This document shows, one piece after another, positions 12,184 to 12,256 of a stretch of DNA of 21,323 nt. Source of the DNA: a virus; the IMG/VR virus record IMGVR_UViG_3300031673_000563, positions 1 through 21,323 of that record; one strand, written 5' to 3'. Every line of letters starts with the position of its first letter. Positions within the stretch are counted from its first letter, which is position 1. The notes beneath the pieces are model-generated. The model was not told the origin of the DNA. It did no database searches and saw nothing but the letters and a program-made list of their open reading frames with translations. Both the position numbers and the translations under genes were made by a program.

Positions 12184-12256
12184 TGCGCCCGACGGGAATC
12201 GAACCCGTTTTTTTACGATTTTAGAGATCGTTGCTCTACCTTAGAACTGCAGGCGC
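12184..12256 (-). tRNA. Suppressor-type tRNA with anticodon CUA, which reads the UAG amber codon.
   Basis: Folded by hand. Acceptor GCGCCTG/CGGGCGC. D-stem GTTC/GAGC. Anticodon stem ACGAT/ATCGT with loop CTCTAAA (U33, C34-U35-A36, A37). T-arm ACGGG-TTCGATT-CCCGT. Discriminator A. Unusual C8 and a 6-nt A-rich variable loop. Confidence 0.65.

Follow-up and report, generated by a model that had tools for sequence, protein, structure and literature searches.

Transfer RNAs (tRNAs) whose anticodons read stop codons recur in large phages without any rewriting of the genetic code, and their purpose is a standing puzzle. Such suppressors were reported for the standard-code jumbo phages XacN1 (two with anticodon CUA), RsoM2USA (CUA), Atu_ph07 (UCA), and phage G (UUA), and for the Sinorhizobium phages Phosso (CUA) and phiM12 (UUA). 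The genomes of XacN1 and Atu_ph07 also contain, at some place, genes for peptidyl-tRNA hydrolases; the papers on XacN1, Atu_ph07, and RsoM2USA listed suppressor tRNAs and hydrolases separately, proposed no link between them, and found no read-through targets. Here we describe a CUA tRNA (tRNA-CUA) in a stretch of viral DNA of 21,323 nucleotides (nt), IMG/VR record IMGVR_UViG_3300031673_000563, positions 1 to 21,323, hereafter called the window, together with a PTH2-like peptidyl-tRNA hydrolase gene located upstream of it (Table 1). A CUA tRNA in a large standard-code phage is already known, and the window copy alone is a further example, set apart by its odd C8/U14 core. The apparent novelty lies in the conserved pairing of a UAG-reading tRNA with a phage-specific PTH2-like gene, since no description of this linkage was found in the literature searched.

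The window tRNA shares with the jumbo-phage suppressors its stop anticodon, the standard code, and the absence of a known target gene, and the Phosso CUA tRNA is its best database match. The Phosso gene, however, is flanked by aminoacyl-tRNA synthetase genes, and a PTH2 was not detected at distances of up to 3 kb. A phage tRNA-CUA is likewise found in the Lak and crAss-like phages that use code 15, and the type of copy carried by L015, a relative of the window, is 86% identical over 50 nt to that of Lak-B2. Lak and the window phage come from one broad group of huge phages, whose genomes are rich in A+T and dominated by TAA stops. The vault-like protein encoded by the window is 49–53% identical to those of the uncultured huge phages LR756500 (462 kb) and LR756501/3 (735 kb), which are genomes of the 'Mahaphage' group that also contains the TAG-recoded Lak megaphages. 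In contrast to Lak, where the genes beside the tRNA are full of in-frame TAG, no such gene was found in the window or in the complete LR756500 genome. Lak-B5 differs further in that its PTH2-like gene adjoins a UUA tRNA, the CUA tRNAs being approximately 67 kb away. The same two-gene pair as in the window is present in the mycobacteriophage Bxz1, in which gp154, annotated as 'peptidyl tRNA hydrolase' and 36–39% identical to the window PTH2, is followed 306 nt later by gt155, annotated as a 'tRNA-like product', which is a CUA tRNA scoring 57.9 bits on Rfam. Bxz1 is a cultured, standard-coded phage with about 200 relatives in Cluster C, and it differs from the window in its 65% G+C, its actinobacterial host, the absence of p124 (a gene located between the two partners in the window), and the annotation of gt155 as 'tRNA-OTHER'. 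No comment on the anticodon of gt155 or on its linkage to PTH2 was found in the papers searched.

In the window, the PTH2-like gene precedes tRNA-CUA by 1059 nt on the same strand. Its product resembles the archaeal and eukaryotic Pth2 enzymes (2zv3, 1rzw, and human Bit1, 1q7s) in belonging to PF01981 with a full-length profile match, which gave E ~2e-06 for the archaeal structures 2zv3 and 1rzw. Relatives of the window were sought via proteins because nucleotide searches, namely an exact 42-nt tRNA search of IMG/VR and a megablast of half the window against phage genomes, gave no match. A search with the vault-like protein yielded 14 IMG/VR loci at 49–85% identity, in 8 of which a CUA tRNA occupies the same syntenic place downstream of the vault-protein gene. 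All eight of these loci retain the order PTH2, p124, tRNA-CUA, and no PTH2 match was obtained in the five vault-protein loci without a CUA tRNA. PTH2 also lies approximately 785 nt upstream of the CUA tRNA on the same strand of LR756500, and two contigs found solely via a DNA pattern of the anticodon arm carry an adjoining PTH2 in the opposite order.

A further search was made by querying IMG/VR with the PTH2 alignment alone, which gave 80 loci with identities of 34–74% on contigs of up to 529 kb. A CUA tRNA was detected at ≤4 kb from PTH2 in 62 of them and a UUA tRNA in 4 more, while UCA was found in none, so that only codons of release factor 1 (RF1) are covered by the PTH2-linked tRNAs. The CUA tRNA is co-oriented with PTH2 in 60 of the 62 loci and mostly less than 1 kb away, in one of two arrangements: 12–1564 nt downstream of PTH2, or ending 66–233 nt upstream of it. 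In 55 loci, the closest tRNA neighbor of PTH2 has the anticodon CUA, and in 4 it has UUA. No other tRNA accompanies the CUA tRNA in 22 PTH2 loci, indicating that the linkage is not a side effect of tRNA arrays. Seven residues are invariant in this PTH2 subfamily (R6, R7, D8, H20, E73, D75, and N78).

The pair was also recognized in named phages. Myrna carries PTH2 with a CUA tRNA (the latter detected by ARAGORN only), PTH2 of the window type occurs in 207 Mycobacterium phage records, a tRNA-Sup precedes PTH2 by 2.6 kb in Tenacibaculum phage pT24, and two tandem CUA tRNAs follow it at 2.1 kb in LR756501 (735 kb). A search of 185,579 species genomes for the subfamily gave three matches, two of which have an adjoining CUA tRNA, and the subfamily is hence almost confined to phages. 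These three matches (L172, JBBACR010000001.1, 425361 bp; L173; L174) come from metagenome-assembled genomes (MAGs) of Pacearchaeota, Methanobacterium, and Allosphingosinicella, and their contigs are probably phage sequences binned into cellular genomes. Carriers of the pair span 23–70% G+C and include genomes with TAG as a common stop, which argues that the pair is not tied to TAG depletion or recoding. We are highly confident that the linkage between PTH2 and the CUA tRNA is real. Many stop-reading tRNAs of large phages are then not isolated oddities but half of a conserved pair with a phage-specific PTH2-like hydrolase, found in phages of Bacteroidetes, Actinobacteria, and other hosts with genomes of 150–735 kb. 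The question accordingly moves from read-through targets to the joint role of a tRNA that reads UAG and an enzyme that cuts the peptidyl-tRNA bond, and it is testable, as the pair is present in about 200 cultured and genetically tractable phages of Mycobacterium smegmatis such as Bxz1.

The tRNA gene itself was examined on the minus strand, where ARAGORN found four tRNA genes in the window including one at 12183-12256 with the anticodon cta. The label 'Pyl' that this program prints is given to any cta anticodon and reflects the anticodon only. The Rfam model RF00005 matched the gene over its full length with 51.5 bits (gathering score 29; E = 1.3e-08). The parsed molecule consists of a 7-bp acceptor stem (GCGCCUG/CGGGCGC), the linker CA, a D stem (GUUC/GAGC) with the loop UAAGGUA, a single A, an anticodon stem (ACGAU/AUCGU) with the loop CUCUAAA, the variable loop AAAAAA, a T stem (ACGGG/CCCGU) with the loop UUCGAUU, and the discriminator A73; CCA is not encoded. 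The anticodon loop provides U33, C34-U35-A36, and A37, and with its seven nucleotides and a purine at position 37 it has the form seen in amber suppressors. Within the tertiary core, the GG of the D loop and the T loop are kept, while positions 8 and 14 deviate, being C8 and U14 instead of the usual U8-A14. The sequence-only reading of this locus had folded a good cloverleaf with the loop CTCTAAA by hand and had pointed to C8 and to a variable loop of six A; the cloverleaf is upheld by ARAGORN and Rfam, and both peculiarities appear as claimed in the Rfam alignment and the parsed arms. In the lowest-energy fold (-26.8 kcal/mol, z = -3.66), the D stem grows to six pairs and its loop shrinks to 3 nt.

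Two special tRNA classes were considered and rejected. Pyrrolysine tRNAs (tRNA-Pyl) are characterized by a 6-bp anticodon stem, a 3-nt variable loop, a single base between the acceptor and D stems, and a 5-nt D loop without GG. In the window tRNA, the anticodon stem is 5 bp and the variable loop 6 nt long, the linker consists of the two bases CA, and the D loop contains GG; no gene for PylRS or another synthetase was found by Pfam and protein annotation of the window. Selenocysteine tRNAs (tRNA-Sec) possess the anticodon UCA, 8/5 acceptor/T helices, a long variable arm, and a 6-bp D stem. The window tRNA has CUA, 7/5 helices, and a short variable loop, so that only the possible 6-bp D stem is Sec-like.

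The sequence-only reading had also suggested that the gene could be a tRNA-like decoy, and indeed the nearly universal U8-A14 is replaced by C8 and U14, the variable loop is AAAAAA, and the window copy stands at the bottom of the Rfam scores of its family. The copy in locus L028, the most degenerate CUA tRNA found, has two acceptor-stem mismatches and a D loop without GG. A pseudogene or decoy with no decoding role is nevertheless extremely unlikely. All four stems of the window tRNA are intact, its T loop, U33, and A37 are canonical, and its 51.5 bits fall within the range of the phage sense tRNAs (44–66 bits). A second, independent assembly of this phage (ENA contig k141_2967084, L003:9812-9885) carries an identical tRNA-CUA. 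A covariation set was formed from ten family members, with Lak and Phosso among them; standard pairing holds for 205 of its 210 stem cells, double compensatory changes occur at 17 of the 21 stem positions, and U33, CUA, and A37 are invariant. The clade's CUA tRNAs are strongly divergent and yet mutual best matches rather than copies of a sense tRNA, and those of the relatives score 52–69 bits on the Rfam tRNA model, among the top-scoring tRNAs of their loci. Together with the syntenic conservation in 8 of 14 loci, these values speak against the decoy suggestion. Covariation of the stems around a fixed U33, CUA, and A37 points to a functional tRNA with a selected anticodon, and the window gene is very probably a real, functional elongator-type tRNA gene. 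The C8/U14 pair and the all-A variable loop are confined to the window copy, the nine relatives compared all having U8 and A14 (also A9), and this copy may be less efficient than its relatives, either somewhat impaired or specialized.

A different build is seen in the CUA tRNA of LR756500 (L036:19992-20060; LR756500 110652-110720, minus strand), which is only 69 nt long. Its 8/9 linker is unclear, its D loop has 5 nt, its anticodon stem may have 6 bp, and its variable loop has 3–4 nt; this compact build recalls tRNA-Pyl. No promoter-like motif was found upstream of the window tRNA-CUA by the motif scan, and the tRNA is hence probably processed from a longer minus-strand transcript. The hairpin in front of it (Table 1) gave a signal in a terminator-like scan in which the T-run was scored on the plus strand.

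The amino acid carried by these tRNAs was approached by comparing their bodies. The CUA tRNAs of the window, L015, and Lak are tRNA-Trp-like in their D and anticodon arms, and the best annotated sense-tRNA matches of the window-type CUA tRNAs are tRNA-Trp genes of several phages. The E. coli amber suppressor Su7 (supU), a tRNA-Trp bearing a CUA anticodon, receives mainly glutamine. The window, L015, and Lak tRNAs resemble it in these arms, the loops CUCCAAA and CUCUAAA being one base apart, but the acceptor end of the window type (G1-C72, A73) is not Trp-like. In the tRNA-Trp of the phage itself, A1-U72 and G73 are found at this end, and in its tRNA-Gln genes U1-A72 and A73. Other family members differ still more from Su7: the L023-type CUA tRNA is Lys/Arg-like, and others have long variable arms. 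Among 52 distinct PTH2-linked tRNAs, the discriminator is A in 33, G in 12, U in 5, and C in 2, and the variable region ranges from 3 to 21 nt. No preferred residue emerged when Lak TAG positions were aligned to LR756500 homologues (33–36% identity), the residues being scattered. Such widely differing tRNA bodies suggest that the inserted amino acid is unimportant and that the reading of UAG (or UAA) is the conserved feature.

Whether TAG serves as a stop was examined in the window, in 31.6 kb of the source sequence (positions 1-31624 of a 57.7-kb ENA contig of which the window is a variant), in 15 related loci (about 250 kb), and in the complete LR756500 genome, which was rebuilt from ten pieces. 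The window has 29% G+C with nearly all genes on the minus strand, and encodes the vault-like protein, AsnA, the PTH2-type hydrolase, a Ro60/TROVE-like protein, a dCMP deaminase, NAD synthase, a nicotinamidase-type isochorismatase, and several homing endonucleases. Four of its open reading frames (ORFs) end in TAG, and none merge when TAG is read as sense. Neither ORF merging nor a gain in coverage was observed for L007, L015-L029, and L001/L036, and a search for in-frame TAG genes was negative for the clade sequence (approximately 250 kb) and for the initial 21 kb of a contig of 132 kb. Stops in the source contig and the 15 related loci are TAA-dominated with approximately 8% TAG, whether or not a locus carries a CUA tRNA. 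As a positive control, the ORF coverage of Lak rose from 0.56 to 0.75 with TAG as sense, and a 639-aa (amino acid) ORF there holds 10–14 in-frame TAG. LR756500, with 26 tRNAs including one CUA plus a transfer-messenger RNA (tmRNA), gave an ORF coverage of 0.818 with code 11 and 0.828 with code 15, and 25 of its 486 stops are TAG, counted on ORFs of at least 100 aa. This complete relative combines a CUA tRNA with a fully standard code.

Four candidates for genes interrupted by TAG were rejected. Two 'split' candidates in LR756500 (317732-319276 and 63026-63676) and two in-frame TAG candidates in the clade (L028:12475-13272 and L029:14737-16254) each consist of two adjacent, separate genes that share a frame by chance. 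The in-frame TAG in conserved genes and the density gain that mark recoding of the code-15 type were thus absent from the sequences checked, and no release-factor gene was found in the window, the clade loci, or LR756500, the suppressor tRNA-CUA itself, which in such recoding systems often goes with a phage gene for release factor 2, being present. On 8-kb PTH2 loci, the code-15 coverage gain is too noisy at such a length for classification. Judged on all of the sequence analyzed, the genome of the window phage is probably standard-coded. The sequence-only reading had taken TAG to be a stop in the window, which agrees with the lack of ORF merging and with the 13 vault orthologues that end at the same place; the census of stops and in-frame TAG that it proposed likewise gave about 8% TAG and no interrupted genes in the sequences covered here. 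Its remark that phage suppressors are associated with stop-codon recoding holds for the relatives of the window tRNA that serve TAG recoding in the Lak megaphages.

That reading had further suggested that the tRNA might modulate C-terminal extensions of specific TAG-terminated genes. The vault-protein gene does end with TAG at 16074, and read-through would add exactly the 13 residues foreseen, KLLNKRGYAPLYS, before a TAA. The stop is TAA in 13 of 13 relatives at the same end position, so the TAG is lineage-specific and a conserved read-through of the vault gene was rejected. No shortening of the read-through tails was detected after TAG-terminated ORFs; in these sets, which contain some spurious ORFs, such tails tend if anything to be longer, and the proposed extension of the vault gene is therefore not borne out. 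The missing short tails fit a weak or conditional suppressor, and give it no positive support. The tRNA may also counteract a host translational defence, as that reading suggested.

Our tentative explanation is that the tRNA-CUA and PTH2-like pair handles termination at UAG and does not serve recoding, to which as a whole we assign a probability of approximately 0.45. UAG is the only stop codon that release factor 2 (RF2) cannot serve. The tRNA-CUA would be cut from a long minus-strand transcript, receive the CCA that its gene does not encode, and be charged by a host synthetase, with the choice of amino acid being immaterial. The charged tRNA would compete with RF1 at UAG, letting stalled ribosomes proceed to the next in-frame TAA or TGA served by RF2, and the PTH2-like enzyme would clear or recycle the resulting peptidyl-tRNA. 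The pair would represent a small kit that sustains translation at the sole RF1-only stop codon, of benefit in a long infection in which RF1 is scarce or attacked, rather than a device by which the phage rewrites its own code. With the PTH2 linkage, a role in termination or rescue gains plausibility over recoding. RF1 bypass or ribosome rescue is in keeping with the coverage of RF1 codons only, with an amino acid that does not matter, and with the tmRNA genes found alongside, although this particular role of the pair is to be regarded as possible but on the unlikely side. If the pair does bypass or replace RF1, it would constitute a new way of ending translation, would bear on how phages drift into TAG recoding, and might supply parts for genetic-code engineering.

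Several observations weigh against this explanation. No selection for short read-through tails after TAG was detected, and the window copy, with its C8/U14, shares the lowest Rfam score of its family (51.5 versus 52–69 bits). No stop-anticodon tRNA was found in the flank examined of 14 of the 80 PTH2 loci, 5 of which have less than 650 nt of downstream flank, nor within 3 kb of PTH2 in LR756504 and RAS14. The UUA tRNAs beside PTH2 in four IMG/VR loci and Lak-B5 would read TAA, the dominant stop of the phage. The phage PTH2 differs from the archaeal and eukaryotic enzymes in being shorter (103 aa) and lacking the Lys-rich GKGK loop, whose Lys is catalytic in archaeal Pth2 together with the Asp of the DAG motif; in the alignment to 2zv3 and 1rzw, the loop is shortened and free of Lys and a Glu stands at the Asp position, so that its activity may be other than plain peptidyl-tRNA hydrolysis. 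Finally, the 31.6 kb read belong to a genome of probably several hundred kb, and recoded genes could lie elsewhere.

This last point leads to a rival in which the phage switches its code: as in Lak and crAss-like phages, late genes elsewhere would carry in-frame TAG that the tRNA translates, the window being a standard-coded early or auxiliary region. The 86% identity over 50 nt between the L015-type and TAG-recoded Lak tRNAs speaks for it, as do the A+T-rich, TAA-dominated state of the window, which was proposed in the literature to precede recoding, the reported placement of code-change genes of recoded phages in standard-coded regions, and the coverage of only a fraction of the genome. We consider it improbable, however, given that neither the 250 kb of clade sequence nor the 21 kb of the 132-kb contig yielded an in-frame TAG gene while Lak has recoded genes directly beside its suppressor, that LR756500 bears the pair and is standard-coded throughout, that the TAG stop rate is equally low with or without the tRNA, and that cultured standard-coded phages at 50–70% G+C have the pair as well; recoding would also need a conserved amino-acid identity, which is not seen among the linked tRNAs. 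About equally improbable is a weapon, an idea raised in the literature for jumbo-phage suppressors, in which the tRNA, serving takeover or exclusion, forces read-through of the many TAG-terminated genes of the host or of competitor phages, and the phage, with its few TAG stops, suffers little and uses PTH2, with tmRNA in some lineages, to protect its own translation. It would account for the irrelevance of the amino acid, for the few TAG stops of the phages (about 8% in the clade, 25/486 in LR756500), and for the co-occurrence of PTH2 and tmRNA with tRNA-CUA, but TAG is a frequent stop in the high-G+C carriers themselves (e.g., 7 of 22 ORFs in L155), and UUA versions would strike the TAA stops of the phage.

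A passenger role is less probable again. Here, the tRNA would be a near-neutral buffer against amber mutations or a relic or precursor of recoding, and its adjacency to PTH2 would merely reflect the shared ancestry of an island of translation genes. According to the literature, standard-code relatives of recoded phages sometimes have suppressors and in silico read-through gave no targets in XacN1, and our vault gene and TAG tails show no read-through signature. The pair, however, has been kept with PTH2 identities down to 34% and with unrelated tRNA bodies, from Actinobacteria to Bacteroidetes hosts, and in two gene orders, which makes a neutral linkage unlikely, and the anticodon is fixed amid heavy compensatory change. 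The boldest alternative is an RNA–protein release factor, in which the stop-anticodon tRNA, on a ribosome waiting at UAG or UAA, would deliver or recruit the PTH2-like hydrolase, and the enzyme would free the finished protein without RF1. A tight co-oriented linkage of a peptidyl-tRNA-ester hydrolase with a tRNA for RF1 codons only, never UGA, would be expected of such a device, and the free amino-acid identity and the divergent active-site region of the PTH2-like protein are in line with it; UUA versions in TAA-dominated genomes (including Lak-B5), paradoxical for read-through, would be natural for a terminator. If true, it would explain the free amino-acid identity, the coverage of RF1 codons only, and the tolerated UUA versions, and large phages would terminate at RF1 codons without host RF1. 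It is without precedent, however, as Pth2 enzymes act on free peptidyl-tRNA, and would be redundant in the 13 loci having a small release-factor-like gene; we judge it very improbable. Handling of UAG termination by the pair remains the explanation that we prefer.

Table 1. Features of the window around the tRNA-CUA and PTH2-like genes, in order of position (strand: -, minus;., no strand given).
Feature	Position	Strand	Evidence or remark
tRNA-Gln(UUG), next canonical tRNA downstream, U1-A72, A73	11154..11226	-	ARAGORN, Rfam
GIY-YIG/NUMOD3 homing endonuclease gene	11362..12006	-	Pfam
Initiator-type tRNA(CAU), anticodon arm UCGGGCUCAUAACCCGA	12060..12140	-	Rfam 38.4 bits; missed by ARAGORN
tRNA gene, anticodon CUA (decodes UAG)	12184..12256	-	ARAGORN, Rfam RF00005, fold, family comparison
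G+C-rich hairpin	12259..12279	.	Sequence; in 32-nt gap between 97-aa gene and tRNA-CUA
97-aa gene directly upstream of tRNA-CUA	12289..12582	-	ORF list
p124 gene, no assigned function	12585..12959	-	tblastn in 8/8 CUA-bearing loci, between PTH2 and tRNA
89-aa gene between PTH2 and p124, one of four TAG-terminated ORFs	13050..13319	-	ORF list
PTH2-like gene, 103 aa, TTG start	13316..13627	-	Pfam PF01981 E = 3.7e-08; archaeal Pth2 profile matches
Major-vault-protein-like gene, 822 aa, ends TAG	16074..18542	-	Pfam MVP_shoulder

As shown in Table 1, three small genes lie between PTH2 and tRNA-CUA. The p124 cluster is present in 23 of the 80 PTH2 loci, and p124 has no Pfam or PHROG match. It was rejected as a third component of the pair, since it is limited to the vault clade and has no profile similarity to the PTH2 neighbors in the other arrangement. 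The 97-aa gene gave no tblastn match between p124 and the tRNA in relatives, and is thus regarded as lineage-specific filling.

In other PTH2 loci, the surroundings of the pair hold further translation genes. A 184-aa release-factor-like protein with a PxT motif (RF1-type, QRIPPTEKKGRIQTS) and GGQ is encoded in L115:1866-2420, L121:409-963, and 11 other PTH2 loci, 1–3 kb upstream of the tRNA-CUA/PTH2 pair, and a CCA-adding enzyme gene is nearby in 12 PTH2 loci. Neither gene was seen in the window clade or LR756500. The neighborhood of this same PTH2 sub-group also holds initiator-type CAU tRNAs. Phage tmRNA genes are located in Lak approximately 2 kb from the CUA tRNA (L034:6922-7331 and L035:6974-7369), and at 94511-94921 in LR756500, 16 kb from the CUA tRNA.

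On the other side of tRNA-CUA, the window tRNA(CAU) has a U1xU72 mismatch, a three-base linker, a 13-nt variable arm, and the T loop UGCAACU, and its UCGGGCUCAUAACCCGA arm matches E. coli tRNA-Met genes at 4 places per genome. Similar U1xU72 CAU tRNAs occur near PTH2 in many huge-phage loci, with 38 CAU tRNAs counted in the 80 loci. This tRNA and the GIY-YIG gene separate tRNA-CUA from tRNA-Gln in the window, whereas tRNA-CUA and tRNA-Gln are only about 140 nt apart in L028; the two elements resemble an insertion. Endonuclease-type genes stand amid the tRNA genes at four positions (11362-12006, 6653-7333, 9823-10857, and 20248-21165, all on the minus strand), two being GIY-YIG, one DUF7487 with a C2H2 finger, and one DUF559. 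Beyond the start of the window, the source contig further encodes a tRNA-Trp (CCA, 85 nt, L007:20024-20108) and a tRNA-Asp (GUC, 88 nt, L007:19797-19884) with long stem-loop insertions in the variable region. Such stem-loops are normally confined to Leu, Ser, and Tyr tRNAs.

A short motif, AATATATAAAATA, occurs 7 times in the window against 0.94 expected, and is probably a phage promoter, as its placement suggests. It is found 10–20 nt upstream of the two GIY-YIG genes, the CAU tRNA, a 130-aa gene, and the dCMP deaminase gene, with sites listed at 12151-12163, 12020-12032, 7345-7357, 8824-8836, and 3725-3737 (all on the minus strand). The copy at 12151-12163 precedes the CAU tRNA, and the motif is absent upstream of the CUA tRNA.

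The vault-like protein, which is unexpected for a bacterial virus, comprises MVP shoulder, vault repeat, and SPFH domains, and is shared at 49–85% identity across many huge phages. In L028:10017-10970, the vault-like gene continues in frame into the C-terminal portion of the next, 240-aa gene, the two being joined at a shared 'YVKG(P/S)GPNF' stretch, apparently through a deletion by recombination.

The Ro60/TROVE-like gene (PHROG 850) is at 4927-6627 on the minus strand of the window. No Rfam match to a Y RNA was obtained between this gene and the tRNAs even at E ≤ 1. Six relatives (L015, L016, L017, L020, L024, and L027) have the Ro60-like gene within approximately 1 kb after the CUA tRNA. 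Metabolic genes on the minus strand include AsnA (aspartate-ammonia ligase, 14315-15313), NAD synthase (1945-2817), and the isochorismatase/nicotinamidase-type gene (1056-1667). AsnA, a relative of class II synthetases, was rejected as the charging enzyme of tRNA-CUA, as it has no anticodon-binding domain and is absent from the neighborhood in relatives. A nicotinate phosphoribosyltransferase gene lies just outside the window (L007:11966-13123), and these four genes together form a phage NAD salvage set.

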